64,000 nt of DNA from an uncultured Acidobacteriota bacterium (GCA_902826515.1 CADEFD010000003.1:968-64967); one strand, 5' to 3'; positions 16,955 to 51,925 are shown, numbered from the stretch's first letter. The notes: a model not told the origin generated them from the letters alone. Program-made: numbers and translations.

Positions 16955-17893
16955 GTGCGCCGCTGTCTGCCCTGGGCGGACGCCCCGTCCGCCGCCATGT
17001 CGGCGGTCTTCGCGGCCGAAGCCGCGCGCTGGCGCGACCGGCTCGCGTGGGAGACGGCGCCGCTCTGGCCCGTCCTCGAACACGCCCGCCTGACACGCAC
17101 GCTGCCGGGTTTCGTGCTGCGCGAGGCCAGCGGCGCCGTCACCGGCTGGACCTACGCCGCCGTGCGCGACGGCGAACTGCTGTGCGGAGCGTTATCCGCG
17201 CCGGACATCGCCGGCACCGCGCAGCTCCTCGACGGCGTGCTGGCGCTGCCGGAGGCGGGCACCTCCACGCGCATCGTCTGCTTCGCCTTCACCGACGCCC
17301 CGGACCTTGCCGCCGCCCTCGCCGCGCGCGGCTTCCTGCTCGACCCGCACGAGTACCTGACCCGGCCGCTCGCCGGGGCGCCGGCGGCGCGACGCCCGGG
17401 CCGCGCCTGGGACGTCCGCGATCTCGACGCCACCGCCGAACTCTTCCGCGCCAGTTATCCGGCAGGTGATCCGGGACGGCCGTTCGCGCCCTACAGCCGG
17501 CCCGCCGAGTGGCAGCGATACGTCGCCGATCTCGTCCTCGGCCAGGGGTGCGGCCGCTTCCGTCCGTCGCTGTCGATTGCCGTGCCGGGCCCCGGCGGCA
17601 CGCTCGACGCGGCCGCCATCGTGACCGATCTCGGCGCCGGCACGGCGCACCTCGCGCAGCTCGCGGTGCGGCCGGGCCTGCGCGGCGCCGGCCTCGGCGC
17701 GGCGATGCTCGCCAGTCTCTCGGCCTCGTGTCTCGCCGCCGGGTTCACGCGGCTCTCGCTGCTCGTCGGCGCCAGCAACACGACGGCACGGCGCCTGTAC
17801 GCGCGGGCCGGCTTCACGCCGTGCGCGTGGTTCGTGTCGGCGACGCGGGCCGGACGGGCGGGCGAGACGCGACGCGAATCGACCGCCGCCTGA
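16955..17893 (+). CDS. GNAT-family N-acetyltransferase (two-lobed)
   Basis: C-terminal acetyl-CoA motif A (LAQLAVRPGLRGAGLGAAMLASL...ARRLYARAGF). GTG start 4 nt after the csrA stop. Confidence 0.65.
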   Translation: MRRCLPWADAPSAAMSAVFAAEAARWRDRLAWETAPLWPVLEHARLTRTLPGFVLREASGAVTGWTYAAVRDGELLCGALSAPDIAGTAQLLDGVLALPEAGTSTRIVCFAFTDAPDLAAALAARGFLLDPHEYLTRPLAGAPAARRPGRAWDVRDLDATAELFRASYPAGDPGRPFAPYSRPAEWQRYVADLVLGQGCGRFRPSLSIAVPGPGGTLDAAAIVTDLGAGTAHLAQLAVRPGLRGAGLGAAMLASLSASCLAAGFTRLSLLVGASNTTARRLYARAGFTPCAWFVSATRAGRAGETRRESTAA

Positions 17894-20244: not shown

Positions 20245-20260
20245 TGCGAAAACCCTGCCA
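20245..20260 (-). promoter_or_regulatory. Candidate sigma-54 promoter upstream of fliD
   Basis: Minus strand reads TGGCAGGGTTTTCGCA. The GG-N10-GC spacing is exact. It lies ~50 nt upstream of the fliD GTG. Confidence 0.4.
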
Positions 20261-20344: not shown

Positions 20345-21142
20345 TTACCGGAGGAGCGACAGCACCTGCGAGCTCTGCTGGTTGGCCTGCGCGAGGGCGG
20401 CGATACCGCTCTGCGTCAGGATGTTGTAGCGCGCCAGGTTGGCCGACTCTTCGGCCACGTTGGCGTCGCGGATGCGGCTTTCGGCGGCCTTGGTGTTGAC
20501 CGCCTGATACTGCGCCAGGCCGGTCGCGTACTGGAGGCGGTTCTGCAGCGAACCGACGCTGCCGACCACGGTGCCGACCGTGCCGACGGCCGTCGTGATC
20601 GCGGTGACCGCGCTGGCGGCGCCGCCCGCGGTCGAGATGTTCAGCGCGGCGATGCCCAGCGTGGTGGTATCGGCCGCGCCGATGGTGCCGCCGACGGTGC
20701 CGGAGGCGCCGCTGCTCACGAAGACCGAGAAGCCCTGCGCGGTGCCGAGACCGGCCACCGTGACTTCACGGGCGATTTCCGAGACCACGTCGGTGAACTC
20801 GTTGTTCAGCGTGGTGCGGTTGCCGGTGAACCCGGCCGAGGCCGACTGCGACGCCAGCGTCGCGAGACGGTCGAGAAGCGTGCTCACGTTGTCGAGCGCG
20901 CCGTTCTTGATCTGCAGCGTGGAGAGTCCGTCGTTCGCGTTACGAATGCCCTGGTTGAGAACCGCCTGTTCCGACCGGTACGAGTTGGCCACCGCGAGGC
21001 CGGCCGCGTCGTCGCCCGCCTGGTTGATGCGGAAGCCGCTCGACAGCCGCGTGAGGGTGCGCTGCAGGCCGATGTTCGTCGTGTTGAGGTTCGCCTGCGC
21101 GTTCTGCGCCGACACGTTGCTGACAACTGAGAATGAAGCCAT
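20345..21142 (-). CDS. fliC: Flagellin (short, 265 aa)
   Basis: MASFSVVSNVSAQNAQANLNTTNIGLQRTLTRLSSGFRINQAGDDAAGLAVANS...IRDANVAEESANLARYNILTQSGIAALAQANQQSSQVLSLLR. GGAGGAG RBS. The ORF-track start at 21307 is an upstream extension. Confidence 0.95.
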   Translation of the reverse strand: MASFSVVSNVSAQNAQANLNTTNIGLQRTLTRLSSGFRINQAGDDAAGLAVANSYRSEQAVLNQGIRNANDGLSTLQIKNGALDNVSTLLDRLATLASQSASAGFTGNRTTLNNEFTDVVSEIAREVTVAGLGTAQGFSVFVSSGASGTVGGTIGAADTTTLGIAALNISTAGGAASAVTAITTAVGTVGTVVGSVGSLQNRLQYATGLAQYQAVNTKAAESRIRDANVAEESANLARYNILTQSGIAALAQANQQSSQVLSLLR

Positions 21143-21221: not shown

Positions 21222-21248
21222 TAATCGGAGGTCGCCCGCGGAGCTTTA
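21222..21248 (-). promoter_or_regulatory. Sigma-28-type promoter of fliC
   Basis: Minus strand reads TAAAGCTC-N11-TCCGATTA versus TAAAGTTT-N11-GCCGATAA. It lies ~80 nt upstream of the fliC ATG. Confidence 0.65.
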
Positions 21249-21266
21249 ATGCGGGTGTCGGCGGGT

Positions 21267-21282
21267 TGGCATGGATCCGGCT
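21267..21282 (+). promoter_or_regulatory. Weak sigma-54-like element upstream of the glycosylation operon
   Basis: TGGCATGGATCCGGCT. The GG/GC spacing is correct but the -12 region is poor (CGGCT). It lies 26 nt upstream of ATG 21308. Confidence 0.2.
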
Positions 21283-21307: not shown

Positions 21308-21916
21308 ATGGTCGACTGCCTGGTCAACGACATCCCGGAACGCTTCGATTTCCTGCCGGAAACGTGGGGAGCGCTGCTCGCCGGCCTCGATCGCCGCATC
21401 AGCGCCGGCCGCCGGGTGGTGACGGCCGTGCGATTCGATGGTGTCGACCAGCCGTCATTCCGGCACCCCGACCTGGCCGGCGTGGCCCTCGAACGGATTG
21501 CACGGATCGACGTCGAGGCCGAGGATGCCGGGGCGCTGCTCAGGGCCGCGGTGGACGCGGCGACCGACAGCCTGCCCGACCTCGTGGCCGGCGTCGGCCA
21601 GACGGCGGCCGCGCTGCGCGGCGGCGCGCCCGACGCGCAGACCCAGCTCGGCACGCTCGTCGTCGCCCTGCAGTCGCTGATGTCGCTGACGGTCGCCGCC
21701 GGCACCGCGGCTGACATCTCGTATGGCGCCGAGGACGGTGCCGACGCCGTGGTGCGCGGCGCCTGCGCCCGCATCGAAGCGGCGCTTGCCACCCTGGTCG
21801 CCCGGCAGACCGACGGCGACCCGCGCGCGGTGGCCGACGCCCTCGACGAACACCTCGCGCCGGCCGTCGCCGGCTGGTCCGATGTCCTGACTCCTATTCG
21901 CATGAGGGCCGCATGA
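21308..21916 (+). CDS. Hypothetical protein, first gene of the glycosylation operon
   Basis: Strong GC3 coding pattern. The stop overlaps the next start. No recognisable motif. A TTG start at 21266 is possible. Confidence 0.5.
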   Translation: MVDCLVNDIPERFDFLPETWGALLAGLDRRISAGRRVVTAVRFDGVDQPSFRHPDLAGVALERIARIDVEAEDAGALLRAAVDAATDSLPDLVAGVGQTAAALRGGAPDAQTQLGTLVVALQSLMSLTVAAGTAADISYGAEDGADAVVRGACARIEAALATLVARQTDGDPRAVADALDEHLAPAVAGWSDVLTPIRMRAA

Positions 21917-22422
21917 GCGTCTCCTACGGACACCCCGCCCCGGGGATGAGCACGATCTTCTTCGCTTCCACCGGACTGCACCTCCGCTACCGCTGCGATC
22001 CGCTCGGCCACCAGATCGTGGTGACCGACGACGCCGGCGAAGTCGTGCGCGTCTTCGGCGGCTTCGGCCGCAAGGCCGGCGCGCTCGACACGCCGCTCGA
22101 CGTCGTGTTCGTGCGGCCCGAGTTCGCCGGCGAACGCCTGCCGGTCGATTCGGCCGACGCCGTGTGGGTGGCGGTGGCCGACTACGGCAACCGCCGCGTG
22201 CAGGTCTTCGAGCTCGACGGCAGCACGGTGGGCGAGTTCTCGCTCGACGCGTCCGACGGCACCCCGTGGTCGCCGACCGGTCTCGTGTGGCGCTCGCCGG
22301 TGCTCGAGGTCGAAGGCCTCGACGGCGCGCGGACGGCGGTGCATCTGAGCGCGGCGCTCCTTGCCGGCGCCGGCCGCACCACCTTCAGCCGGACCCTGCA
22401 GGGCGGCGAGGCGCGGCACTGA
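21913..22422 (+). CDS. NHL-repeat-like beta-propeller fragment protein
   Basis: LDTPLDVVFV...VAVADYGNRRVQVFELDG resembles an NHL repeat (P.GvavD..g.iyVaD..N.RvqvF). Confidence 0.4.
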   Translation: MSVSYGHPAPGMSTIFFASTGLHLRYRCDPLGHQIVVTDDAGEVVRVFGGFGRKAGALDTPLDVVFVRPEFAGERLPVDSADAVWVAVADYGNRRVQVFELDGSTVGEFSLDASDGTPWSPTGLVWRSPVLEVEGLDGARTAVHLSAALLAGAGRTTFSRTLQGGEARH

Positions 22423-23588
22423 TGGCGCCCGTCACCACCACCGCCGTGCGATTTGCGCCGCCGGTCATCGGCCGCGGCGAAATCGACGAAGTGGTTGCCG
22501 CGCTCGAGTCGGGCTGGCTCTCGACCGGCCCGCGCGTGCGCCAGTTCGAGACGGCCTTTGCCGCCTACACCGGCGCGCCGCACGCGCTGGCGCTCAACTC
22601 GTGCACGGCGGCGCTGCATCTGGCGCTGCTCGCCTACGAGGTCGGGCCGGGCGACGAGGTGGTGACGACGCCGCTCACGTTCTGCGCGACGGCGAACGTC
22701 GCCATCCACACCGGCGCCACGCCGCGATTCGCCGACATCGATCCGCACACGTGGAATCTGTCGCCGGCCGCCGCCGAGGCCGCGGTGACCACGAAAACGC
22801 GCGCCGTCGTGCCGGTGCACTTCGCCGGCCGCCCGGTGGACGTGGCCGCGTTCCGCGCGCTGGCCACGCGGCATCGCCTGGCGCTCATCGAAGACGCGGC
22901 GCACGCTGTCGAAGCGGTGTCGGCGGGCCGGAAGATCGGTGCCACGGCCGACGTCACGTGTTTCAGCTTCTACGCCACGAAGAATCTGACGACGGGTGAG
23001 GGCGGCATGCTCACGACGGCCTCCGACGAGGTGGCGCGTTTTGCCCGCACGGCCTCCCAGCACGGCATCAGCCGCGACGGCTGGGCCCGCTACAAGGAAC
23101 TCGGCAGCCCGCACTACGACGTGCTGTTCCCGGGTTTCAAATACAACATGATGGACCTGCAGGCCGCCATCGGCCTGCACCAGCTGGCCGGGCTCGCCGC
23201 GCGCACGGCGCGCCGCGAGTCGGTGTGGGGGATCTACGACGAGGGGCTCGCCGACCTGCCGCTCGGGCGGCCGGCGCCGGTGCCTTCGGGCGACGTGCAC
23301 GCGCGGCACCTGTATTCGGTGCTCGTCGGACCGGAGTCGGGCTGGACGCGCGACGACCTCATCGCCCACCTCGCCACGCGCGGCATCGCGACCAGCGTGC
23401 ACTTCCGCGCACTGCACCTCCACCCGTACTACCGCGAGCGCTACCGCCTCACGCGCGGCATGTTCCCCGAAGCGGAACGGGTCTCGGACCAGATCGTGTC
23501 GCTGCCGTTCGGCGGCGGCATGACCGACGACGAGGCCTGGACGGTCGTGGATGTGCTGCGGCGGGCAATTCCGGGACGGACGCGCTGA
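22422..23588 (+). CDS. pseC: DegT/DnrJ/EryC1-family PLP aminotransferase (PseC-like)
   Basis: GRGEIDEVVAALESGWLSTGPRVRQFETAFAAYTG..ALALNSCTAALHLAL...FSFYATKNLTTGEGGML (catalytic Lys context). Confidence 0.8.
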   Translation: MAPVTTTAVRFAPPVIGRGEIDEVVAALESGWLSTGPRVRQFETAFAAYTGAPHALALNSCTAALHLALLAYEVGPGDEVVTTPLTFCATANVAIHTGATPRFADIDPHTWNLSPAAAEAAVTTKTRAVVPVHFAGRPVDVAAFRALATRHRLALIEDAAHAVEAVSAGRKIGATADVTCFSFYATKNLTTGEGGMLTTASDEVARFARTASQHGISRDGWARYKELGSPHYDVLFPGFKYNMMDLQAAIGLHQLAGLAARTARRESVWGIYDEGLADLPLGRPAPVPSGDVHARHLYSVLVGPESGWTRDDLIAHLATRGIATSVHFRALHLHPYYRERYRLTRGMFPEAERVSDQIVSLPFGGGMTDDEAWTVVDVLRRAIPGRTR

Positions 23589-24568
23589 TGCCGATTATCC
23601 GACACGTGGCGGTCGTCTTTCGCATCGCGGCCGGCCCCCGCCTGGGTTTCGGCCACCTGATCCGGTGCCGCGCCATCGCGCGCGCCCTCGGCGTCATGCC
23701 GCGCGTCTCGATCCGCGGCACCGCGGCGACGCGTCGCGCCGGCGCCGCGCTCGGGCTGCGTGTGATTGACGGCGGTCCGGGCCTGCTCGACCGCGAAATG
23801 CCGCAGATCCTCGTGGTGGACGACCCGTCCGCCCCGGCGGCGCGCCCCTGGGTGTCGGCGGCCCGACGCCGCGGCATTCCGGTCGCGACCATTCACGACG
23901 CGGGCCTGGCCCGCGTGGACGCCGACCTCGTCATCGACGGCAGCGTGCGCACGGCGCCGCAGGCCGATGCCACCCGGCTCTTCGGGCCGCGTTACGCCGT
24001 CATCGACCCCCGCGTCGCGGCGCTCGGCGCCGGACGCCGGCCCACGAAGGGGAGCGTGCTCGTGGCGGTGGGCGGCGGCGCTCATGTCTTCGCCCTCGTG
24101 CCGGCCGTCGTGGCCGCTCTGGCCCGGCGCGTGCCCGGCCTCGACATCCAGGTGGCGGCCGGGTTCACGCCGCGGCATCGGCGTCCGGCGCTGCCGGCGG
24201 GCCGCTGGCTCGCGCCCGGGAAGCTCGGCCGCGCGCTCGCCTCGGCGCAGGTCGCGATCGTGGCCGGCGGCCTCACCGCCTACGAAGCCTGCGCGCTCGG
24301 CGTGCCGGTCGTAGCCGTGTCGGTCGTGCCGGCGCAGCAGCCCACGGTGCGGGCGCTGGCCCGGCGCGGCGCGGCAGTGGACGGCGGTCCGCTCGGGACG
24401 GCCGGCGCGGCGCGCCGCGTCGCCGAGCACTCGACCCGCCTGCTGGCGGCGCCGGCCGCACGGCGGCGGCTCGCAGCCAACGGCCGCCGGCTCGTCGATG
24501 GCCGCGGCGCGGCTCGCGTCGCCGTGGCGCTGCGCGCGCTGGCGCGGCAGGGAGGGACCCGTGGCTGA
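23588..24568 (+). CDS. pseG: PseG-like UDP-sugar hydrolase (GT28 C-terminal-like)
   Basis: N-terminal FRIAAGPRLGFGHLIRCRAIARAL matches the PseG FRxD..xIGxGHxxRC signature. C-terminal AIVAGGLTAYEACALGVPVV. Confidence 0.65.
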   Translation: MPIIRHVAVVFRIAAGPRLGFGHLIRCRAIARALGVMPRVSIRGTAATRRAGAALGLRVIDGGPGLLDREMPQILVVDDPSAPAARPWVSAARRRGIPVATIHDAGLARVDADLVIDGSVRTAPQADATRLFGPRYAVIDPRVAALGAGRRPTKGSVLVAVGGGAHVFALVPAVVAALARRVPGLDIQVAAGFTPRHRRPALPAGRWLAPGKLGRALASAQVAIVAGGLTAYEACALGVPVVAVSVVPAQQPTVRALARRGAAVDGGPLGTAGAARRVAEHSTRLLAAPAARRRLAANGRRLVDGRGAARVAVALRALARQGGTRG

Positions 24569-25259
24569 GCGTCGCGCCATCCTGTTCGATCTCGACGACA
24601 CGCTCTATCCGCTCGAGCGGTTCGTGATGAGCGGCTTCCGCGCCGTCGCGGCCGCCGTCGACGCCCGCTGGCGGGTGCCGCGGGCCGCCGCGCTCGAAAC
24701 GCTCGTGAGCGCCGTCGCGGCCTCGCGGGGGCGTGAACTGCAGGTGCTCGCCGAACGGCACGGCCTCGCCGCCGATGTCGTGCCGGAACTCGTGGACGTC
24801 ATCCGCCGGCATGTGCCCGAACTGCGCCTGCCCGAACTCAGCCTGTCGGTGCTCGGCGCGCTGCGCCGCGACTGGCGTCTCGGCATCGTCACGAACGGCC
24901 GGCCCGACATCCAGGCCCGCAAGGTGCGCGCGCTCGGCGTGCACCGCCTCGTGGACGTCATCGTCTACGCGCACGGCGTCGGCACCGGCGCCGGCAAACC
25001 GGACGCGGCGCCGTTCCTCGATGCCTGCCGGCAGCTCGGTGTCGCCCCGGCGGCGACCGTGTTCGTCGGCGATGACCCCGACTGCGACATCGCCGGCGCG
25101 CATGCCGTCGGCATGAAGACGATCTGGCTGCCCGCCCGTGTCGCCCCGCAGACGGCGCGCCCGGCGGAGCTGGCCGATGTGATCGTGGCCTCGCTGGCCG
25201 ATGTGCCGGCGGCTGCCACCCGACTCCTTGCGCCCGAATGGAGGGCCCATGTTGCCTGA
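24561..25259 (+). CDS. HAD-superfamily hydrolase
   Basis: ILFDLDDTLY (DxDxT motif I), TNG (motif II), VFVGDDPDCDIAGA (motif IV). GTG start overlaps the pseG end. Confidence 0.75.
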   Translation: MAERRAILFDLDDTLYPLERFVMSGFRAVAAAVDARWRVPRAAALETLVSAVAASRGRELQVLAERHGLAADVVPELVDVIRRHVPELRLPELSLSVLGALRRDWRLGIVTNGRPDIQARKVRALGVHRLVDVIVYAHGVGTGAGKPDAAPFLDACRQLGVAPAATVFVGDDPDCDIAGAHAVGMKTIWLPARVAPQTARPAELADVIVASLADVPAAATRLLAPEWRAHVA

Positions 25260-26325
25260 CGCCACTCAACTGCGTATCGGCGGCCGTGTGGCCGGCGACG
25301 GCGCGCCGCTCTTCGTCATCGCCGAGATCGGCCTCAATCACGACGGCTCGCTCGATCGGGCGCTCGCGCTCGTGGACGCGGCGGCTGCGGCCGGCGCCTC
25401 GGCCGTGAAGGTCCAGGCGCTCATCGCCGAGGAACTCGTGGCGCCGGGCGCGCCGGCGCCGATGCACGTCGAGGCGGCCTCGCTCGTGGACTTCTTCCGC
25501 CGCTTCGAACTCGACGAAGACAGCTACGCGCGCATCGCCGCCCGCGCCCGCGAACGCGGCCTGGCCTTCATCGCCACGCCGTTCTCCGAGGCCGCCGTGG
25601 ACATGCTGGAGCGGGTCGGTGTGGACGCCTGGAAGATCGCGAGCGGCGATGTGACGTGGGAACGCCTCATCGCCCGCTGCGGCGCCACCGGGAAGCCACT
25701 CATCATCTCGACCGGCATGTCGTCGCTCCAGGAAGCGCAGCGCGCGCTCTACTGGGCGATGCGGGCCGGCGCCTCCGGTGTGGCGCTGCTGCACTGCGTC
25801 TCGGCCTATCCGGTGCCGAAGGGCAGCGAGAACCTGCGCGCCATCGCCACACTCGGCATGGCCTGCCGCGCGCTGGTCGGTTTCTCGGACCACGGCGGCG
25901 ACGGCTTCTCGGTGCCGCTCGCCGTCGCCATGGGCGCAGCCCTCTACGAACGCCATCTCGTGCTCCAGGCCGACGACGACAGCATCGATGCCGAGGTCTC
26001 GAGCACTCCGGGAGAACTGGCCGGCATCGTGCGCGCCGCGGCGCGGACCCAGGCGGCCCTCGGGACCGGCGTGAAAGTGTGCCTGCCGGCGGAGAAGGGC
26101 AATGTCGAACCGAGCCGCCGCGCCCTGTACGCGCGCCGGCGGCTGCCGGCCGGACACGTCGTGTCGGCCGCCGATCTCATCGCGCTCCGGCCGGCGCACG
26201 GCCTCGGCGCCGACCGCCAGCGCGAGCTGGTGGGCCAGCGGCTCAGCCGCGACGTGGACGCCGGCGCGCCCTTCCAGCTCGCCGACCTGCACGCCCTCGA
26301 CAAGGGAACCGAACATGTCGCTTAA
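25249..26325 (+). CDS. pseI: NeuB-family nonulosonic acid synthase (PseI-like)
   Basis: PLFVIAEIGLNHDGSLDRALALVDAAAAAGASAVKVQ, FIATPFSEAAVDML, KIASGD. C-terminal SAF domain (RRALYARRRLPAGHVVSAADL). Confidence 0.85.
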   Translation: MLPDATQLRIGGRVAGDGAPLFVIAEIGLNHDGSLDRALALVDAAAAAGASAVKVQALIAEELVAPGAPAPMHVEAASLVDFFRRFELDEDSYARIAARARERGLAFIATPFSEAAVDMLERVGVDAWKIASGDVTWERLIARCGATGKPLIISTGMSSLQEAQRALYWAMRAGASGVALLHCVSAYPVPKGSENLRAIATLGMACRALVGFSDHGGDGFSVPLAVAMGAALYERHLVLQADDDSIDAEVSSTPGELAGIVRAAARTQAALGTGVKVCLPAEKGNVEPSRRALYARRRLPAGHVVSAADLIALRPAHGLGADRQRELVGQRLSRDVDAGAPFQLADLHALDKGTEHVA

Positions 26326-27319
26326 CGTCCTCATCACCGCCGGGTCGCGGCGGGTGCCGCTCGTGCGCGCCTTCCAGCGCGCCGTGGCGCATCACCGCGG
26401 CGGCAACGTCATCGTCACCGACGTGAATCCGCTGTCGCCGGCCGTGCACGCCGCCAACCGCGCCTACCGCGTGCCGCTCTCGGCCGCGCCGGGCTACATC
26501 GACGCCATTCTCGACATCTGCCTCGGCGAGCGGGTCTCGCTCGTCGTGCCGACCATCGACGACGAACTCGTGCTCTTCGGCGGCGCCGTCGCCCGCTTCC
26601 GCGAACACGGCATCCGCGTGGCGGTGTCACCCACGCCCACCTCGGCGCTCTGCGAAGACAAGTACGCGACCTGCCGCTACCTGCACGAACGCGGCATTCC
26701 GGCGGCGGCCTCGTGGCTGCCGTCCGACCTGCCGGCGGCGCCCGCGTTCCCGCTGTTCATCAAGCCGCGCCGCGGCCGCGGCAGCGTCGGCGCGCACGCG
26801 GTGCGCACACCGAAGGAGCTCGACTTCTTCTCCGGCTACGTGGCCGATGCCGTCATTCAGGCGTATCTCGACGGACCGGAGTTCACGATCGACATGCTCT
26901 GCGACTTCAGCGGCCAGCCGCTCAGCATCGTGCCGCGCCGCCGCGACGTGATCCGCGCCGGCGTCTCCGACCGCGGCCGCACGGTGAACGACCCGGCGCT
27001 CATCCAGGTGGCGCGCACCTGCGCGGCCACGCTGCCGTTTGCCGGCGCCGTCAACATCCAGTGCCGCCTCGTGGACGGCCAGCCGGTCATCTTCGAGATC
27101 AACCCGCGCTTCTCGGGCGGCATTCCGCTCACGATTCACGCCGGGGCCGATTTCCCGCGGATGCTGGTCGATCTCACGGCCGGCGTGCGCGTGGCGCCGG
27201 CCATCGGCAAGTTCCGCGACAACCTGTGGATGGCGAGCTACGAGACGTCGGTATTCCTCGACGGCAGCCGCGTCAGTCTTCCCGAATATCACCCGACCCG
27301 TGTTGAGGACGTAGCATGA
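26315..27319 (+). CDS. ATP-grasp domain enzyme
   Basis: MSLNVLITAGSRRVPLVRAF...LFIKPRRGRGSVGA...GPEFTIDML...GAVNIQCRLVDGQPVIFEINPRFSGG is the ATP-grasp fold pattern. Confidence 0.7.
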   Translation: MSLNVLITAGSRRVPLVRAFQRAVAHHRGGNVIVTDVNPLSPAVHAANRAYRVPLSAAPGYIDAILDICLGERVSLVVPTIDDELVLFGGAVARFREHGIRVAVSPTPTSALCEDKYATCRYLHERGIPAAASWLPSDLPAAPAFPLFIKPRRGRGSVGAHAVRTPKELDFFSGYVADAVIQAYLDGPEFTIDMLCDFSGQPLSIVPRRRDVIRAGVSDRGRTVNDPALIQVARTCAATLPFAGAVNIQCRLVDGQPVIFEINPRFSGGIPLTIHAGADFPRMLVDLTAGVRVAPAIGKFRDNLWMASYETSVFLDGSRVSLPEYHPTRVEDVA

Positions 27320-28035
27320 GTGCCCGCGCTGCCATCGTCGTTCAGGCCCGTATGGGCTCGTCCCGCCTGCCCGGCAAGTCGCTGGCGCCGATTGCCGGCC
27401 GGTCGCTGCTGGCGCACGTCGTCGAGCGGCTGGCCGATCAGCGGGAGCTCCCGGTCGTGCTCGCCACGACGACGCTCCTCGAAGACGACCTGCTCTGCGA
27501 CGAAGCCGACCGCCTCGGCATCGCCGTGCTGCGCGGCTCGGCCGACGACGTGCTCGGGCGCTATGCGTTCGCGGCGTCGCTGCTCGGCGTGCCGGCGATC
27601 ATCCGCGCCACCGCCGACAACCCGGCCGTGGACCTCGCCGCGGCCGTGCGCACGCTCGACATCCTGCAGCGGTCCGGCGCCGACTACGTCGTGGACTACG
27701 GCCTGCCCACCGGCGCGACCGTCGAGGCGATGAGCGTGCCGGCGCTCGTGCGCGCGGCGGCGCTCGCGACCGACGCCTACGACCGCGAACACGTGACGCC
27801 GTTCATCCGGCGCGACGGCCGCTCGCGGGCCGTGGACGCGCTGGCGCCCACAGAGCTGCGGCGGCCCGACCTCCGCTTCACCGTCGATACGCCCGAAGAC
27901 CTCGACTACATGCGCCGGGTCTACCTCGAGGCCGGGCCGGCCGAACGGCCGTGGCCGCTCGCCGCGCTCATCGCCGCGGCCGACCGCGTGCGCGAACGCG
28001 CCGAACTCGAACAGACGGGAGCAGATGCGCGGTGA
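27316..28035 (+). CDS. pseF: Cytidylyltransferase (PseF/SpsF-like CMP-nonulosonate synthetase candidate)
   Basis: AIVVQARMGSSRLPGKSLAPIAGRSLLAHVVERL...LRGSADDVLGRY is an acylneuraminate cytidylyltransferase-family N-terminus. Confidence 0.6.
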   Translation: MSARAAIVVQARMGSSRLPGKSLAPIAGRSLLAHVVERLADQRELPVVLATTTLLEDDLLCDEADRLGIAVLRGSADDVLGRYAFAASLLGVPAIIRATADNPAVDLAAAVRTLDILQRSGADYVVDYGLPTGATVEAMSVPALVRAAALATDAYDREHVTPFIRRDGRSRAVDALAPTELRRPDLRFTVDTPEDLDYMRRVYLEAGPAERPWPLAALIAAADRVRERAELEQTGADAR

Positions 28036-28862
28036 CGACGCCCCGACGTTTCTCCGACGCCGCGTTCCTGTTCAGCGTGCCGCTGACGGTGGCGCTCGTC
28101 GTCGGCGCGCAGTCGCTCGACGGCGGCCGGCTGGCGACGCTGCTGCAGCCGGCGGCGGCCCTCATCGTCTTCGGCGGCACGTTCGTGGCGGTGGTGTTCA
28201 GCTTCCCGCTGCAGCTCCTCGCCCGCACCGGCCGGGCGCTGGCGGCGGCGTTCGGACGGCGGCCCGAGTCGGACACGGCGCTGCTGGCGCGGATGGGGGA
28301 GTATGCGACGCGCGCCCGCACGCGCGGCAAGCTGTCGCTCGAGAACGAACTGGGGAAACACGACGATCCGTTCCTGCTGCGCGCGCTGTCGCTCCTCGTG
28401 GACGGCGTGCCGGCGGCCGACGTGCGCCACACCCTCAAGACCTTCAGCCAGGTGCGCGAAGAAGCCGATGCCGAATGTGCGCTCGTGCTCGAAGCCGCCG
28501 GCGGCTACGCCCCCACCCTCGGCATCCTCGGCGCGGTGCTCGGCCTCATCCAGGCCATGGATCACCTGACGACGCCGGCCAGCGTCGGCCCCGGCATCGC
28601 CGTGGCGTTCGTGGCCACGGTCTACGGCGTCGGCGCCGCCAACCTCGTGTTCCTGCCGCTGGCGACGCGGCTGCGCAGCCTCGGCCGCCAGGCCGCGCTC
28701 AGCCGTGAAGTCGTGATCGAAGGCGCCGTCGCCATCCAGCAGGGCATCCATCCCACGCTCGTCGACGGACATCTGCGCAGCCTGCTCATGGCCTGGCACG
28801 GCGCCCCGCACTACGCGGTGCCGACCGAGGCCACGACGCGGGCCCGTCTGGTGAAGTCATGA
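28032..28862 (+). CDS. motA: MotA/PomA-family stator protein (set 1, PomA/MotP-like)
   Basis: GGYAPTLGILGAVLGLIQAM...GPGIAVAFVATVYGVGAANLVFLPLATRL (MotA/TolQ/ExbB channel helices). GTG start in a GTGA overlap with the upstream stop. Confidence 0.85.
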   Translation: MTTPRRFSDAAFLFSVPLTVALVVGAQSLDGGRLATLLQPAAALIVFGGTFVAVVFSFPLQLLARTGRALAAAFGRRPESDTALLARMGEYATRARTRGKLSLENELGKHDDPFLLRALSLLVDGVPAADVRHTLKTFSQVREEADAECALVLEAAGGYAPTLGILGAVLGLIQAMDHLTTPASVGPGIAVAFVATVYGVGAANLVFLPLATRLRSLGRQAALSREVVIEGAVAIQQGIHPTLVDGHLRSLLMAWHGAPHYAVPTEATTRARLVKS

Positions 28863-29548
28863 ACATCCGGCTCTCCGCCACCCAGGTCTCGCGCGACCGC
28901 TGGCTCATCTCGTACGCGGACTTCATGACGCTGCTCTGCGCGTTTTTCATGACCGTCTACGCGGCCACCCTCGCCGAGACGCCGGCGGCCACGGCCGCCG
29001 CGCCCGTCGCCGCGGCCGCGCCGGCCGTCGAGACGGCGCCCGAGCCGCCGCCGGTCGATCCGTCAGTCGCGCTTCGCGAACAGGTGGAGCGGGCGCTGGC
29101 GCCGGAACTTGCCGCGGGATACCTGCAGCTCGTCGAGGATCCGCGCGGCCTCGTCATCGAAGTGCCCGAAGCCGGCGCGTTCGATGTGGGGCAGGCGGCG
29201 CTCGCGCCCGAGGCGCAGGCGATGCTCTCGCGCATCGCGACCATGCTCACGACGCTGCCGAACGCGGTGCGCATCGAAGGCCACTCCGACACGACGCCGA
29301 TCCGCACGCCGCAGTACGCGTCGAACTGGGATCTCTCGACCGCGCGCGCGACCAGCGTCGTCGAGTTCCTCGTGACCACGGCGGGCCTCGTGCCGTCGCG
29401 GCTGTCGGCCGCGGGCTACGCGGAGTTCAAGCCGCGCGCCTCGAACGACACGCCGGAGGGCCGGGCCCGCAACCGTCGCGTGGACCTCGTGCTGCTGAAC
29501 GACGCGACGGCACGCGCCGAGGAACCGGCAGGGAGCCTGCGGCCATGA
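28859..29548 (+). CDS. motB: MotB/PomB-family stator protein (set 1) with OmpA-like domain
   Basis: RWLISYADFMTLLCAFFM (conserved Asp in the TM helix). C-terminal OmpA motif (IEGHSDTTPIRT..NWDLSTARATSV...NRRVDLVLL). Confidence 0.9.
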   Translation: MNIRLSATQVSRDRWLISYADFMTLLCAFFMTVYAATLAETPAATAAAPVAAAAPAVETAPEPPPVDPSVALREQVERALAPELAAGYLQLVEDPRGLVIEVPEAGAFDVGQAALAPEAQAMLSRIATMLTTLPNAVRIEGHSDTTPIRTPQYASNWDLSTARATSVVEFLVTTAGLVPSRLSAAGYAEFKPRASNDTPEGRARNRRVDLVLLNDATARAEEPAGSLRP

Positions 29549-30693
29549 GGTGCCCGTTCACCAACGCGGAACTCGAGCGCCTGCTCGACCGGCCGGTGCG
29601 GCACCTGCTCGGCGCCGCGGATCGAAAGCGCTACTCGGGGCGGCGGCTGCTCATCACCGGCGCCGGCGGCTCGGTGGGCTCGGAACTCTCGCGCCAGCTC
29701 GCCGACTGCCGGCCCGAGGTGCTCACGCTCGTCGATCACTCCGAACTGCATCTCTTCGAGATCAGCAAGGAGCTGTCCGAACGTGTCCCCGGCCTGGCCA
29801 TCGAGCCGGTGCTCGCCGACATCTGCCAGGCGCCGCTCATGCGCCGCACGATCCTGCAGGCGTCGCCCGACGTGGTCTTCCACGCTGCCGCCTACAAACA
29901 TGTGTCGATGATGGAGCGCGATGTCTGCGCGGCCGTGGGCGCCAACGTCCTCGGCACGGCCAACGTGGTCGAGGCGAGCCGCGAGGCGGGCGCCCGCTTC
30001 GTGCTCATCTCGTCCGACAAGGCGGCCGCGCCGCGCAGCGTGATGGGGGCGACCAAGCGGCTGGCCGAACTCGTGGCGCTCGCCGCCACGCCCGGCGGCG
30101 CGCGGCCGATCGTGGTGCGTTTCGGCAACATCCTCGGCAGCAGCGGCAGTCTCCTCGCGATCTTCCGCGACCGCATCCGCCAGGGCCTGCCGCTCGCCCT
30201 GACCGACCCCTCGGCGACGCGCTACGTGATGACGGCCGGGGAAGCGGTGGCGCTCGTGATGAAGGCCGATCTGCTGGCCCGGCGTCCCGAGACCTACTGG
30301 CTCGACATGGGCGAGCCGATCGAGATCGGCGGCCTGACGGAGCGGCTGCTGGCGCTCGAGGCCGAGGCGGGATTCGCCCGCGTGCCGATTGAGATCGTGG
30401 GCCTCGGGCCCGGCGAGAAGCGGTGTGAGGAACTGACCACCCAGGGCCTGCGGATGTGCCCGACGGCGCACCGCCGCATCTGGGTGGCGCGCCAGAAGAC
30501 GAGCGACGGCGAGGCGGTCACGCGGGTGATCGCGCGGCTGCGGCGGATCGTGGAACAGGGCGACGCCGAGGCGGCGCTCGACCTGCTGGCCGGCGCGGTG
30601 CCCGATTTCGAAGCGAGCGATGAGGCGTGGGCGTGGGCCCGGCGCCGGAGCGCCCCGGTGGTCCGCCGCAGCGGACTGTCGCGGAGCGCATAA
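29545..30693 (+). CDS. pseB: CapD/Polysacc_synt_2-family UDP-GlcNAc 4,6-dehydratase (PseB/FlaA1-like)
   Basis: LLITGAGGSVGSELSRQL...FHAAAYKHVSMME...FVLISSDKAAAPRSVMGATKRLAE. ATGA overlap with the motB stop. Confidence 0.7.
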   Translation: MRCPFTNAELERLLDRPVRHLLGAADRKRYSGRRLLITGAGGSVGSELSRQLADCRPEVLTLVDHSELHLFEISKELSERVPGLAIEPVLADICQAPLMRRTILQASPDVVFHAAAYKHVSMMERDVCAAVGANVLGTANVVEASREAGARFVLISSDKAAAPRSVMGATKRLAELVALAATPGGARPIVVRFGNILGSSGSLLAIFRDRIRQGLPLALTDPSATRYVMTAGEAVALVMKADLLARRPETYWLDMGEPIEIGGLTERLLALEAEAGFARVPIEIVGLGPGEKRCEELTTQGLRMCPTAHRRIWVARQKTSDGEAVTRVIARLRRIVEQGDAEAALDLLAGAVPDFEASDEAWAWARRRSAPVVRRSGLSRSA

Positions 30694-30704: not shown

Positions 30705-31829
30705 GTGCGGATTCTTCATCTCATGGCGTTCGTCAGCGGCGCGGCCGGCAAGGCCGTGGCCGAACTGGCGGTGGGGCAGAAGCGCGCCGGTCACCACGTG
30801 ACGGTCGTGACGTCGAAGACGCCGGCCGGCGGGGTGATGAACCAGCCGGTGCTCATGCGGAAGCTGAGCGACGGCGGCGTGTTCGTACACGCGGTCGATT
30901 CGCTGGCCTCGCGGCAGACCGCCCCCAATGCCGACGTGGTGCAGTTCATCCACGACCACCTCGGCACGGCGGCGGCCTTCGACGTGCTGCACACCCACGG
31001 CACGGTGCCGAGTGTCATCGCCATCGCCGCGGCGCGCCGGGTCACGGCCCGCGTGCCCATTCTGCAGACCTCGCACGAGTGGACGGTGTCGCGTCCGGGC
31101 GGCGGCCGCCAGGCCTACGACCTCGAGGTGATGAACCTCGTGGATCGCGCGGTCGTGCCCACGTGGTCGGTCGCCGAACACTTCGTGTCGCGCGGCGTCG
31201 TGCGGCGGCAGCTCGCCGTCGTGCCCTACGGCGTGCTGCCCGATCCGCCGCCCTCGTCGGGCGACATGCTCGAGCGCGAGATGCATGCGTGGCGCGCGGC
31301 CGGCGGCCTCGTGCTCTGCTATGTCAGCGCGACGACCACCTCGCACGACCAGCGCCTGCTGCTGAACGCGCTGCCGTTCGTGGACGCGCGCCTCAAGATC
31401 CTCTGCGTCTTCTTCGGTGGGCAGGAATCGCGGGCGACCGCGCCGTGGCCCACCGACGGCCCGGTCACCGTGCGCGTGGCGCCGCAGGAGGCCGCCGTGC
31501 GCCAGTACTCGCACGAAGCGGACTTCCTGGTGCTGCCGTCGGGCGACGGCGAACAGCCGCTCGCCGTGCTCGAAGCCTTCTGCGACCAGGTGCCGGTCGT
31601 AGCCAGCCGCGTGCCGGAACTCTCCGAGTTCATCGATGACGGGCAGACCGGCTGGCTCTTCGATCCGACCGACACGCGGGCGCTCGCCGAAACGCTGACG
31701 CTGGCGCGATCGACGGCGCCGCACGCGCTGCGCGCGCTCTGCCAGCGGGCCCGCGTGCGGTACCAGCAGGAGTTCACCATCGATCGGATGGTGACCGGCT
31801 ACATGCGCGAATACGCCCGGCTCGGGTGA
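30705..31829 (+). CDS. GT4-family glycosyltransferase
   Basis: VRILHLMAFVSGAAGKAVAELAVGQKRAGHHVTVV. C-terminal DFLVLPSGDGEQPLAVLEAFCDQVPVVASRVPELSEFIDDGQTGWL (E-x7-E). GTG start with a GGAG RBS. Confidence 0.8.
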   Translation: MRILHLMAFVSGAAGKAVAELAVGQKRAGHHVTVVTSKTPAGGVMNQPVLMRKLSDGGVFVHAVDSLASRQTAPNADVVQFIHDHLGTAAAFDVLHTHGTVPSVIAIAAARRVTARVPILQTSHEWTVSRPGGGRQAYDLEVMNLVDRAVVPTWSVAEHFVSRGVVRRQLAVVPYGVLPDPPPSSGDMLEREMHAWRAAGGLVLCYVSATTTSHDQRLLLNALPFVDARLKILCVFFGGQESRATAPWPTDGPVTVRVAPQEAAVRQYSHEADFLVLPSGDGEQPLAVLEAFCDQVPVVASRVPELSEFIDDGQTGWLFDPTDTRALAETLTLARSTAPHALRALCQRARVRYQQEFTIDRMVTGYMREYARLG

Positions 31830-42313: not shown

Positions 42314-42329
42314 AGCAACGGTTGTGCCA
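42314..42329 (-). promoter_or_regulatory. Candidate sigma-54 promoter for the MTase / GT-MTase / MTase / sulfotransferase operon
   Basis: Minus strand reads TGGCACAACCGTTGCT (15/16 to TGGCACG-N4-TTGCW). It lies ~40 nt upstream of ATG 42275, in the 163-nt gap after maf. Confidence 0.55.
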
Positions 42330-44207: not shown

Positions 44208-44234
44208 TCAAGGAATCCGGCAGCGCGCCGATTG
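44208..44234 (+). promoter_or_regulatory. Sigma-28-type promoter upstream of motA (set 2)
   Basis: TCAAGGAA-N11-GCCGATTG. The -10 is identical to the flgM and HK promoters. It lies 44 nt upstream of the ATG. Confidence 0.45.
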
Positions 44235-44277: not shown

Positions 44278-45150
44278 ATGTTCGTCATTATCGGCACGCT
44301 CATCGTCATCGGCTCGGTGCTTGGCGGCTACGTCATGCACCACGGCAAGATCGCGCTGCTCAACCAGCCGAACGAGTTCCTCATCATCTTCGGCGCCGCC
44401 GTCGGCCAGCTCCTCATCGGCACGCCGCTGCCGACGGTGATGAAGCTGCTCAAGCAGATGGGCGAGGTGATGAAGCCCGGGCTGGCCAAGAGCGACTACG
44501 CGGACCTGCTGGCGATGCTCTACCAGCTCTTCCGCCTGTCGCAGCAGACCGGCATCATGGCGCTCGAAGGCCACTTCGAGAACCCGAAGGACAGCTCGAT
44601 TCTCTCGAGGTATCCGAAGTTCCTGTCGCGCCACGAGTCGCTCGACTTCCTCTCCGATTCCATCAAGGTGATCATCGTCGGCGGCATGGCGCCGCACGAC
44701 CTCGACGCGCTGATGGATGAAGACCTCTACGTCCATCACCACGAGGCGAAGGCGCCGGCCGGCGCGCTGGCCAAGACCGCCGACGCGTTCCCCGGCCTCG
44801 GCATCGTCGCCGCCGTGCTCGGCGTCGTCATCACGATGCAGTCGATCGACGGCCCGCCGTCGGAAATCGGCGAGAAGGTCGGCGCCGCGCTCGTCGGCAC
44901 GTTCCTCGGCATTCTGCTCTCCTACGGCATCTTCGGGCCGCTCGCGACCATCATCGAGACCCGCGTGGACGACGAGGGCAACTACGAGAAGTGCATCAAG
45001 GCGGGCGTGCTCGCGACCTTCAAGGGGCTGCCGCCGGCGATTGCCATCGAGTTCGCGCGGCGCGTGCTGCCGCATCAGGTGCGGCCGAGCTTCGAAGAGA
45101 CGGAAAAGTTCTGCAAGGCCGCGGGCAAGCCCGAAGCGGCAGCGGCCTAA
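44278..45150 (+). CDS. motA: MotA stator protein (set 2, enterobacterial MotA-like)
   Basis: MFVIIGTLIVIGSVLGGYVMHHG...AFPGLGIVAAVLGVVITMQSI...ALVGTFLGILLSYGIFGPLATII. Internal ATG of ORF 42817-45150. Confidence 0.93.
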   Translation: MFVIIGTLIVIGSVLGGYVMHHGKIALLNQPNEFLIIFGAAVGQLLIGTPLPTVMKLLKQMGEVMKPGLAKSDYADLLAMLYQLFRLSQQTGIMALEGHFENPKDSSILSRYPKFLSRHESLDFLSDSIKVIIVGGMAPHDLDALMDEDLYVHHHEAKAPAGALAKTADAFPGLGIVAAVLGVVITMQSIDGPPSEIGEKVGAALVGTFLGILLSYGIFGPLATIIETRVDDEGNYEKCIKAGVLATFKGLPPAIAIEFARRVLPHQVRPSFEETEKFCKAAGKPEAAAA

Positions 45151-45153
45151 GTC

Positions 45154-46047
45154 ATGAAACCCACGCAGCCGGTCATCATCATCAAGAAGAACCGCGGCGG
45201 CCACGGCGGCCACCACGGCGGCGCCTGGAAGGTGGCCTACGCCGACTTCGTGACCGCCATGATGGCGTTCTTCCTCGTCATGTGGCTCGTCGGCGCCAGT
45301 CCCGACGTGAAGAAGTCGGTGGCCGGGTACTTCCGCGACCCGGGCGTGTTCGACTTCGAGAAATCCACCGGCATGATGGCCGGCGGCATGACCGGCATCG
45401 ACGAAGGCCGCGCGCCCGAGACGGTGCAGCAGCCCGATGCCGCGGCGCTCACCGTCGAACGCCAGAAGCTCGAAGAGTCGGCCTCGCGCATCAAGGACAG
45501 CCTGGCCGACGCCGGCGGCCTCGAGGAACTGCGCGACCAGATCGAGTTCTCGGTGACCGAGGAAGGTCTGCGCATCGAACTGCTCGAGAAGGACGCCTCG
45601 AGTTTCTTCGGCAGCGGCAGCGCCGCGCTGCGCGGCGAGAGCGTGCGCATCCTCGGCATCATCGGCCGCGAGCTGGGCCAGATGACCAACGACATCGTCG
45701 TCGAAGGGCACACCGACAGCCGGCCCTTCGGTGCCGGCCAGACCTACTCCAACTGGGAACTCTCGGCCGATCGCGCCAATGCCGCCCGGCGGGTGATGGA
45801 GGCCGTCGGCCTCAATCCCGGCCAGGTGCAGGGGGTGCGAGGGTTCGCCGCCACGCAGCTCCGCCTCGCCGAGGCGCCGATGGACCCGCGCAACCGGCGC
45901 GTGTCGATCGTGGTGCGCAGCCAGTCGCGCGCCCGCCTGGAAGACTCGCTGCGTCGCGGCACGGCGCCGGCCGCCGCCCCGCCGCCGCCCGAAACCACCA
46001 CGCCATCCGGGGTGTCCCCGGCGACCGCGCCGCCGCCGGCGCATTAA
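45154..46047 (+). CDS. motB: MotB stator protein (set 2) with OmpA-like domain
   Basis: GGAWKVAYADFVTAMMAFFLVMWLV (conserved Asp). VEGHTDSRPF...SNWELSADRANAARR...NRRVSIVV. Confidence 0.93.
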   Translation: MKPTQPVIIIKKNRGGHGGHHGGAWKVAYADFVTAMMAFFLVMWLVGASPDVKKSVAGYFRDPGVFDFEKSTGMMAGGMTGIDEGRAPETVQQPDAAALTVERQKLEESASRIKDSLADAGGLEELRDQIEFSVTEEGLRIELLEKDASSFFGSGSAALRGESVRILGIIGRELGQMTNDIVVEGHTDSRPFGAGQTYSNWELSADRANAARRVMEAVGLNPGQVQGVRGFAATQLRLAEAPMDPRNRRVSIVVRSQSRARLEDSLRRGTAPAAAPPPPETTTPSGVSPATAPPPAH

Positions 46048-51133: not shown

Positions 51134-51925
51134 CTAGAACACCAGCTTCAGACTGGCGCCCAGACGCGCGCCGGCCAGATCGAGCGGCTCGAAATCCACG
51201 AAGTCGGCGCTCAGTTTCGCCGAACTCCAGGTGTAGCGGGCTTCCCCGGTGAGATAGAGCCTGCGATAGACGCGCAGGTCGGCGCCGGCCAGCGCATGCA
51301 CGGCGGGCGCCCAGCCTTCGGAATTGAACGTGTCGTTGAAGACGCGCAGCGTCTGGAAGTCCACGAAGCTGCCGTACTGCTCGAAGCGGTATTTGATGGC
51401 GCCGGCACCGGCGCCCACGAACGGCGTGAACGTGCGCGGGATCCACGCGAAGCGGCTGATGCGGCGGCCCGAGGGCAGCAGCGACCAGCGAACGGTGGCG
51501 GCAATCTGGTGATCCTGGCGCCGTGTGGTCTGCGTGATCGGCAGGCCGGCGTTGTCGATGAAGTCGCGGTATTCGGAGGCCGTCTGCGACTTGGCGTTCT
51601 CGTAGAGCACGCCCACTTCGAGCCGCGGCGACAGTGACACCCCGACGCGCCCGCCGATGACCGGCGTGTTGAAGTTCTTCTTCTCGACCGTGAGCTGGTC
51701 GGTGATGAACTCGTAGAGGTCGCTGCCGGCGCTGGCAAAGAGGAAACCGCCGTCCACGGAGATGAACCCCTTCGGACGGCCGAGCATGAAGTCTGACGGC
51801 GGGGGAGGCGAGACCACCGGGGAGCGCGGCGACGACTGCGCCGAAGCGCCGGGCGCGGTCGCGGCCAGAGCCGCGAGTGCGATGACGACCGCGCGAAGGA
51901 CGAGGACTGACCGCTGATGGATCAT
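51134..51925 (-). CDS. Outer-membrane beta-barrel protein (OmpW/OprF-N-like small barrel)
   Basis: Signal peptide ending APGASAQ. Alternating hydrophobic beta-strand pattern. C-terminal LGASLKLVF ends in a terminal Phe. Confidence 0.55.
   Translation of the reverse strand: MIHQRSVLVLRAVVIALAALAATAPGASAQSSPRSPVVSPPPPSDFMLGRPKGFISVDGGFLFASAGSDLYEFITDQLTVEKKNFNTPVIGGRVGVSLSPRLEVGVLYENAKSQTASEYRDFIDNAGLPITQTTRRQDHQIAATVRWSLLPSGRRISRFAWIPRTFTPFVGAGAGAIKYRFEQYGSFVDFQTLRVFNDTFNSEGWAPAVHALAGADLRVYRRLYLTGEARYTWSSAKLSADFVDFEPLDLAGARLGASLKLVF

Follow-up and report, generated by a model that had tools for sequence, protein, structure and literature searches.

Flagellar-type stator genes within a nonulosonic-acid operon of Acidobacteriota, a probable lineage-specific operon fusion

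Stator genes and flagellin-glycosylation genes are each known from several kinds of flagellar loci, and these provide the closest comparison for a locus in which a stator gene pair, motA1 and motB1, stands among the sugar genes of a predicted nonulosonic-acid biosynthesis operon. The locus lies in a 64,000-nucleotide stretch of DNA (hereafter the window) from an uncultured Acidobacteriota bacterium (GCA_902826515.1, CADEFD010000003.1:968-64967). Pseudomonas aeruginosa possesses two stator pairs, MotAB and MotCD, in one flagellar system, and Pseudomonas motCD is located among chemotaxis genes and depends on sigma-28. In Spirochaetes, Firmicutes, delta-proteobacteria and others, the stator genes belong to a flbD-motA-motB module. 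The flagellin glycosylation islands of Campylobacter, Helicobacter, Aeromonas, Pseudomonas and Clostridium combine nonulosonic-acid genes with a Maf-like transferase and with glycosyltransferases beside fliC, fliD and fliS. The sigma-54/sigma-28 hierarchies known from Vibrio, Pseudomonas and Campylobacter place the stators in the sigma-28 tier.

The window shares features with each of these systems and departs from each of them. As in P. aeruginosa, two stator pairs accompany one flagellar system, one of them canonical and the other matched best by MotC/MotD-type models, and several cyclic di-GMP (c-di-GMP) turnover genes are found near the stators. Unlike in Pseudomonas, the MotC/D-like pair forms part of a sugar-biosynthesis operon that is preceded by a sigma-54-type motif. 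In 31 loci from several phyla, orthologous motA genes are preceded by an FlbD gene, as in the flbD-motA-motB module, whereas the window's lineage has no flbD in the 64 kb and motA1 is fused to the cytidylyltransferase gene instead. The gene content resembles that of the glycosylation islands, but the islands returned by our literature searches contain no stator genes between the pathway enzymes, and to our knowledge no described island has stators interleaved among them. In the full-text literature searched, neither a flagellin-glycosylation operon that contains stator genes nor a flagellar locus of Vicinamibacterales was described; an earlier note on this DNA had likewise remarked that the arrangement was not recognised from described flagellar loci.

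We consider it likely, though well short of certain, that the locus arose by a lineage-specific operon fusion, with the stator co-transcribed with the glycosylation genes from a sigma-54-type promoter. Since relatives share the layout, it would be a real but modest fusion and not a new kind of system, and its practical weight is small because it is a gene-order variant in uncultured soil Acidobacteriota that brings no new protein or mechanism. If the model holds, the clade expresses two stator types in different flagellar tiers, one under sigma-54 and the other under sigma-28, and would offer a simple natural system for how two-stator bacteria choose which stator to install.

Gene junctions and identity of the embedded stator pair

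The motA1 and motB1 genes lie between the genes for a CMP-sugar cytidylyltransferase and a 4,6-dehydratase (Table 1). This order had been proposed in the earlier note, and the domain content of the four genes agrees with it. The junctions were read directly and are the ones reported before: the GTG start of motA1 lies on the cytidylyltransferase stop (GTGA, 28032‒28035), and ATGA overlaps join motA1 to motB1 (28859‒28862) and motB1 to the dehydratase gene (29545‒29548). Upstream, ATGA overlaps of 4 nt are located at 21913 and 27316, TGATG overlaps of 1 nt at 22422 and 23588, and overlaps of 8 to 11 nt at 24561, 25249 and 26315. All ten junctions from the first gene of the block, hypA, to the dehydratase gene overlap, by 1 to 11 nt, as had been claimed for every junction from 21913 to 29548. 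Elsewhere in the window, nine junctions between same-strand genes have confident ends, and by our own count about four of these overlap. The block is packed more tightly than the genes around it, but single overlaps are ordinary for a genome of 72% GC, the value of the window.

The block had been described as an 11-gene unit. Its tightness stands, but its proposed end at 30693 does not, because a gene for a GT4 glycosyltransferase starts only 11 nt past the dehydratase stop. In the relative L003, the GT4 gene overlaps the dehydratase gene by 4 nt. The GT4 gene is probably a continuation of the operon, giving a unit of at least 12 genes. Stoichiometric co-expression of glycosylation genes and stator, which had also been read from the 4-nt overlaps, is not implied by them, because a separate Shine-Dalgarno-like sequence (GGGAG or GGTGA) stands a few bases before the start of each of the three genes concerned and because the stator has A5B2 stoichiometry. 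Solved stator structures are A5B2 complexes and not 1:1 complexes, and equal amounts of enzymes and structural subunits are not to be expected.

By every sequence test applied, the embedded pair is of the flagellar stator type. MotA1 matches PF01618 with 84.3 bits (cut-off 22.9) and PF20560 with 31.2 bits (cut-off 27.3), and MotB1 matches PF13677 with 33.4 bits and PF00691 with 71.2 bits, the plug model being matched only at profile positions 15‒38 of 58. In an alignment to Vibrio PomA, R96, E104, P161 and P209 of MotA1 align with R88, E96, P151 and P199 of PomA; we take the Arg and Glu to be the FliG (rotor)-contact charges in the cytoplasmic loop and the two conserved prolines to be the channel prolines. 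Residues G99, L103, E104, P161 and P209 of MotA1 are invariant across 16 homologues. The channel Asp, the predicted ion-binding residue of the transmembrane helix, is present in MotB1, where WLISYAD21F aligns with WLATFSD of Clostridium MotB. The PDB matches of MotA1 at E<1e-20 are exclusively flagellar stators, and its closest solved relatives are Firmicute MotA and PomA. The earlier statement that a stator is interleaved with nonulosonic-acid enzymes is borne out, the stator being of flagellar type.

The top curated models are the MotC-type model NF006583 for MotA1 (223.9 bits, cut-off 237) and the MotD model NF006541 for MotB1 (179.4 bits, cut-off 283). Since these scores fall under the curated cut-offs, equivalence to MotC and MotD is not established. 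Against the curated PomA model NF006527, MotA1 reaches 137 bits, with a cut-off of 341. The positions of PomA T158 and T186, which are presumably marker residues of the sodium-driven PomA/PomB, are occupied in MotA1 by Ala168 and Thr196. The description of the pair as PomA-like holds loosely, in the sense of a short MotA type, but the best models are of the MotC/MotD type and PomA Thr158 is replaced by Ala, and MotC/MotD-like seems to describe the pair better.

A second stator pair, motA2 and motB2, is located at 44278‒46047, 15 kb downstream of the embedded pair. Identity between the two pairs is 25% for MotA1 and MotA2 and 28% for MotB1 and MotB2. Since the window contains two motAB pairs, the embedded pair is one of two stator sets and not the sole stator; the second pair is canonical and has its own sigma-28 motif.

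Distribution among relatives and likely history of the fusion

The closest matches to MotA carry the names Vicinamibacterales or Acidobacteriota, and the genome is that of a soil acidobacterium of the Vicinamibacterales. Relatives were scanned with one genome per species, which gave 80 loci (denoted L001 onward); the window proteins were mapped on them by tblastn and the junctions were measured. The earlier note had named relatives as the place where the arrangement should be checked, and its absence from them as a refutation. This refutation does not apply, because about 22 species-level genomes of Acidobacteriota link the sugar operon to motAB, with or without flbD, their MotA identity ranging between 95% and 39%. 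The gene order and the 4-nt overlaps are found at 86%, 72% and 60% MotA identity, and independent gene calls agree in L002 to L005. The overlap of the cytidylyltransferase gene (pseF) with motA is 4 nt in the loci of 20 relatives, as GTGA or ATGA, across 46‒95% MotA identity, and the motA/motB and motB/dehydratase junctions in relatives are mostly overlaps of 4 or 1 nt. This tight form, in which the cytidylyltransferase stop and the motA start overlap by 4 nt, is found in the window's branch (L001‒L008, L010, L012‒L015, L018, L040 and L041). L017 and L011 share the gene order; the nearest motA start in L017 lies 2 nt past the stop, and the motA alignment in L011 begins only at residue 77. A Logan contig (P0044) encodes a 463-residue protein with both CTP_transf_3 and MotA_ExbB domains, most likely a read-through of the overlapping junction caused by an assembly indel.

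Among about 55 loci labelled as other phyla, sugar genes beside an orthologous motA were found in none save two metagenome-assembled genomes (MAGs), L014 and L040. These two, titled 'Ilumatobacteraceae' and 'Bifidobacterium sp.', respectively, are MAG contigs with an Acidobacteriota-type locus and are probably mis-binned or mislabelled.

A spaced form is found in Vicinamibacteraceae/Luteitalea (L019, L025, L029, L038 and L067) and in more distant Acidobacteriota (L028, L043 and L058). The apparent gap of 230‒350 nt between pseF and motA in this form is a small flbD gene (FlbD PF06289, 2.7e-21 and 6.7e-26). An FlbD gene lies directly 5' of orthologous motA in 31 loci, including those of delta-proteobacteria, Myxococcota, Planctomycetota and Vicinamibacteraceae, and judged by gene order flbD-motA-motB is a standard module. 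The flbD start overlaps the cytidylyltransferase stop in L019, L025, L029 and L038 and lies 1 nt past it in L067. In L043 and L058, flbD is preceded by an AT-rich spacer of 150 nt that carries a sigma-28-like motif, TAAGG-N16-ACGATATA. In L028, flbD overlaps the pseF stop, and about 86 nt ahead of flbD, within the 3' end of pseF, lies a good sigma-28 motif. The sugar genes are wholly absent from L027, where fliC and hypA are followed by a spacer with a sigma-28-like motif and by flbD-motA-motB. A tblastn search of the 64-kb window for flbD gave nothing below E 0.3; an flbD may lie elsewhere in the genome.

The simplest history suggested by these gene orders begins with an early Acidobacteriota ancestor whose glycosylation operon had the stator module immediately behind it, followed by collapse of the spacer in Vicinamibacterales and then by loss of flbD in the window's branch. 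The series of relatives would thus record the stepwise absorption of a transcription unit, from a spacer with a promoter to an overlapping flbD and finally to the loss of flbD. According to the reading we favor, the flbD-motA-motB module originally lay directly downstream of the flagellin-glycosylation (nonulosonic acid) operon, and in the window's branch of Vicinamibacterales the spacer, the module's own sigma-28 promoter and flbD would have been lost, leaving the stator genes fused to the sugar genes. The start of motA1 on the cytidylyltransferase stop would be a product of this fusion, and the dehydratase gene overlaps motB1 likewise. Transcription from a sigma-54-type promoter at 21266‒21282, divergent from a sigma-28-driven fliC, would most likely yield a single mRNA that covers hypA to at least the GT4 gene. 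Production of MotA1 and MotB1 would then coincide with that of the glycosylation enzymes in the sigma-54 tier and precede that of flagellin, MotA2 and MotB2 would accompany flagellin in the sigma-28 tier, and both stator sets would serve the same flagellum.

Promoter motifs and alternative explanations

The sigma-28 pattern TMAR-N16-CCGATW has four matches in the window, compared with 0.12 expected, and each lies just upstream of a gene: fliC, motA2, a histidine-kinase gene and a GGDEF gene (site 47670‒47695). FliA is encoded in the window. A loosened version of the pattern still has no match in the 700 nt preceding motA1, be it in the window or in the tight-form loci, whereas it does match before motA, or before flbD-motA, in many other loci.

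The consensus used for sigma-54 was TGGCAC-N5-TTGCW, with GG and GC 10 nt apart. A motif of this type precedes hypA (Table 1), whose start is most likely ATG 21308, giving a protein of 202 residues, since the homologues are nearly all 202‒203 residues long and a start at TTG 21266 would swallow the promoter motif. The motif is present at a similar distance to the start in the fliC-hypA intergenic regions of 18 of 22 distinct relatives, compared with 5.6% of random 230-nt segments. Taken together, the sigma-54 motifs of the window suggest a sigma-54 flagellar tier in the clade. Sigma-54-type motifs before fliD and the glycosylation operon, with sigma-28-type motifs before fliC and motA2, would match the division seen in the sigma-54/sigma-28 hierarchies of Vibrio, Pseudomonas and Campylobacter.

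A terminator scan of 20300‒37000 gave three sites, compared with 3.4 expected, and none between the operon head and motA1 was convincing. A terminator-like site at 30687‒30709 was not counted, as it includes the start codon of the GT4 gene and its T tract is poor. Co-transcription of the stator with the sugar genes seems likely; it has indirect support in the common strand of the genes, in their ten overlapping junctions and in the lack of any sigma-28, sigma-54 or sigma-70 motif and of any convincing terminator between the operon head and motA1.

Several observations weigh against co-transcription from a sigma-54-type promoter with two stator tiers. Counted within the window only, sigma-54 motifs are no more frequent than chance predicts (two matches, 2.8 expected), and the case for sigma-54 rests on position and conservation. 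Unlike the known sigma-54/sigma-28 hierarchies, the window encodes no rpoN and no sigma-54 activator, although no dedicated check for them was made. The sigma-28 motif before motA2 is found only in the window and in the L002/L010 genome (106 nt before motA2 in L002) and is absent within 250 nt of motA2 in L012, L015, L019 and L027. A sigma-70 consensus scan of 20300‒37000 returned no site, but Acidobacteriota sigma-70-type promoters are poorly defined, which leaves room for an unrecognised internal promoter. The embedded pair also falls under both the MotC and the MotD cut-offs.

An internal promoter is the core of the most serious alternative, in which most transcription of motA1 and motB1 starts at an unrecognised promoter within the cytidylyltransferase coding region and the overlaps reflect nothing but compaction. 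Sigma-28-like motifs are located inside pseF about 360 nt before flbD in L019 and L025, and in the pseF 3' end in L028, and coding-embedded promoters therefore seem to exist in the family. Overlaps are also common elsewhere in the window, at roughly four of nine junctions. On the other hand, the tight forms have no sigma-28 motif in the 700 nt before motA1, a sigma-54 motif inside pseF is lacking in 14 of the 15 tight-form sequences, the window included, and 20 loci that span 46‒95% MotA identity retain the GTGA or ATGA overlap. We regard adjacency without shared regulation as unlikely, though a real competitor.

A functional link between the two gene sets is improbable in our judgment. Here a stator or motor part would be a glycosylation substrate, or the stator would work only with a glycosylated filament, and selection would hold the genes together; torque generation and glycosylation would then form one functional module. 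Among the relatives, the genes for the HAD-family hydrolase, the synthase, the ATP-grasp enzyme and the cytidylyltransferase form a constant core with motA and motB, whereas the presence of the aminotransferase, the dehydratase and flbD varies, which speaks for a functional link. The periplasmic linker of MotB1 is rich in Ala, Pro and Thr and could be a nonulosonic acid acceptor. Against the link, nonulosonic-acid O-glycosylation is known chiefly for flagellins, L027 keeps flbD-motA1-motB1 beside fliC without any sugar genes, and the linkage is seen in no other phylum among the loci. In Burkholderia cenocepacia, MotB is reported to be O-glycosylated, a modification that was dispensable for motility (PMC11237607). 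The idea of the stator as a substrate is thereby conceivable but weak.

It is more improbable still that the pair is a non-flagellar motor that energizes a sugar-tied process such as glycan export, as Tol/Exb/Agl-type motors do. The position among sugar-nucleotide enzymes would suit such a role, and the MotA_ExbB domain is common to non-flagellar motors. However, the pair has MotA_N, the MotB plug and an OmpA domain of the peptidoglycan-binding type, the Arg and Glu of the FliG interface are conserved, the PDB matches of MotA1 below 1e-20 are all flagellar stators, FlbD is linked to the pair in relatives, and the locus lies within a complete flagellar cluster. That motAB entered the sugar operon recently, by accidental insertion or by horizontal transfer, has nothing in its favor beyond the unusual position and is ruled out by the GC content at third codon positions (0.92 in motA1 and 0.91 in motB1, equal to the neighboring genes) and by the synteny shared by about 22 species; across relatives, the identity of MotA also runs parallel to that of the neighboring enzymes.

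Sugar pathway and surroundings of the locus

All NCBIfam scores of the sugar genes lie under the equivalog cut-offs. The aminotransferase scores 339 bits against PseC TIGR03588 (cut-off 423.5), and the NeuB-family synthase scores 265 bits against NeuB_NnaB and 223 bits against PseI (cut-off 340.25), both under their cut-offs. A GNAT gene at 16955‒17893 may encode a candidate PseH. Nonulosonic-acid pathway seems the safe label for these genes, and it leaves the sugar type unspecified. The dehydratase had been called PseB-like, but by its matches it is nearer to Campylobacter PglF than to PseB/FlaA1: it scores 193 bits with PglF/WlaL (PDB 5BJU) compared with 79 bits with FlaA1/PseB (PDB 2GN4), and 104.7 bits against the PseB model TIGR03589, the cut-off of which is 407.75.

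The make-up of the operon is not uniform across relatives. The DegT aminotransferase is absent from the operon in six loci (L002, L010, L011, L012, L013 and L040), and the remaining order is kept. Vicinamibacteraceae have no dehydratase gene downstream of motB. L007, with 95% MotA identity, has lost the catalytic part of the dehydratase through a clean in-frame deletion (L007:11514‒11690, corresponding to 29549‒30534 of the window), and the remnant open reading frame (ORF) of 56 residues keeps its ATGA overlap with motB. The dehydratase may be dispensable or duplicated elsewhere.

The first two genes of the block are conserved and have no assigned function. The hypA family has 109 members, all annotated as hypothetical, nearly all of 202‒203 residues, and is clade-restricted. 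The AlphaFold2 model of HypA (pLDDT 91.4) consists of a small N-terminal β domain and a helical bundle, and a Foldseek search of the PDB gave no significant match, the best E-value being 0.17, to generic helical bundles. PF26154, precomputed for three distant members, was not matched when those three were rescanned against a local Pfam copy. In L027, which lacks the sugar genes, hypA still adjoins fliC. The hypB gene is conserved in relatives at 33‒89% identity, and the label NHL given to it earlier rests on a sub-threshold match of 14 residues (E 0.065, 13.8 bits, cut-off 20, in a Pfam search with E up to 1) and was dropped.

Table 1 Features of the stator and glycosylation loci in the window.
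Feature	Position	Strand	Evidence or remark
fliC (flagellin)	20345-21142	-	Flagellin_N and Flagellin_C; divergent from the sugar/stator block
hypA, conserved, function not assigned; first gene of the block	21308-21916	+	No Pfam match
hypB, conserved, function not assigned	21913-22422	+	Sub-threshold NHL repeat only
DegT-family aminotransferase (PseC-like)	22422-23588	+	PF01041 6.3e-125
PseG-like UDP-sugar hydrolase (weak match)	23588-24568	+	TIGR03590 63.6 bits, cut-off 153.55
HAD-family hydrolase	24561-25259	+	PF00702 1.9e-23
NeuB-family nonulosonic acid synthase	25249-26325	+	PF03102 1.4e-62
ATP-grasp enzyme	26315-27319	+	PF15632, PF21360, PF02655; NF009405 281 bits
CMP-sugar cytidylyltransferase (PseF/NeuA-like)	27316-28035	+	CTP_transf_3 PF02348 3.3e-24
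motA1, embedded stator A subunit (MotC / short MotA type), GTG start	28032-28862	+	MotA_ExbB 7.6e-24 and MotA_N
motB1, embedded stator B subunit (MotD-like)	28859-29548	+	MotB_plug and OmpA 9.9e-20
Soluble Polysacc_synt_2 4,6-dehydratase	29545-30693	+	PF02719 2.6e-78
GT4 glycosyltransferase, GTG start	30705-31829	+	PF13692, PF13439
Maf-like (MptE-like) putative flagellin glycosyltransferase	42439-~44200 (upstream end approximate)	-	PF01973 7.3e-32, residues 1183-1352 of an over-long ORF
motA2, canonical MotA	44278-45150	+	TIGR03818 350.9 bits, above cut-off 303.8
motB2, canonical MotB	45154-46047	+	MotB_plug 7.2e-17 and OmpA; NF006548 231.9 bits
Sigma-54-type motif before fliD, TGGCAGGGTTTTCGCA	20245-20260	-	Upstream of fliD, 14 of 18 distinct sequences from relatives carry the motif
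Sigma-28-type promoter motif of fliC, TAAAG-N15-CCGATT	21223-21248	-	Reverse complement GGTAATCGG...CTTTAAT kept upstream of fliC in most relatives
Sigma-54-type motif before hypA, TTGGCATGGATCCGGCT (GG-N10-GC)	21266-21282	+	25 nt before the hypA ATG
Further sigma-54-type motif	42314-42329	-	Before minus-strand glycosyltransferase and methyltransferase genes
Sigma-28-type motif before the second stator operon	44208-44233	+	Pattern scan

A complete flagellar cluster of the Gram-negative type occupies 1‒21142. Its plus strand carries flhB, flhA, an SRP54-type flhF, fliA, fliM, fliN, flgG, flgA, flgH, flgI, an M23 peptidase gene, flgK, flgL and the GNAT gene, and its minus strand carries fliS, fliD and fliC. 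Between 52000 and 56000, the GC content is 63‒65% compared with about 72%, and the ORFs at 51134‒56665 have no Pfam matches; this region may be a foreign island. Four c-di-GMP turnover genes are located in or beside the flagellar locus, encoding REC-GGDEF-EAL (33638‒35551), GGDEF (47753‒48829), REC-HD-GYP (48241‒49875) and, on the minus strand, PAS-GGDEF-EAL (56921‒58747) proteins. The Maf-like gene, the usual candidate for the flagellin nonulosonic-acid transferase, stands back-to-back with the second stator operon.

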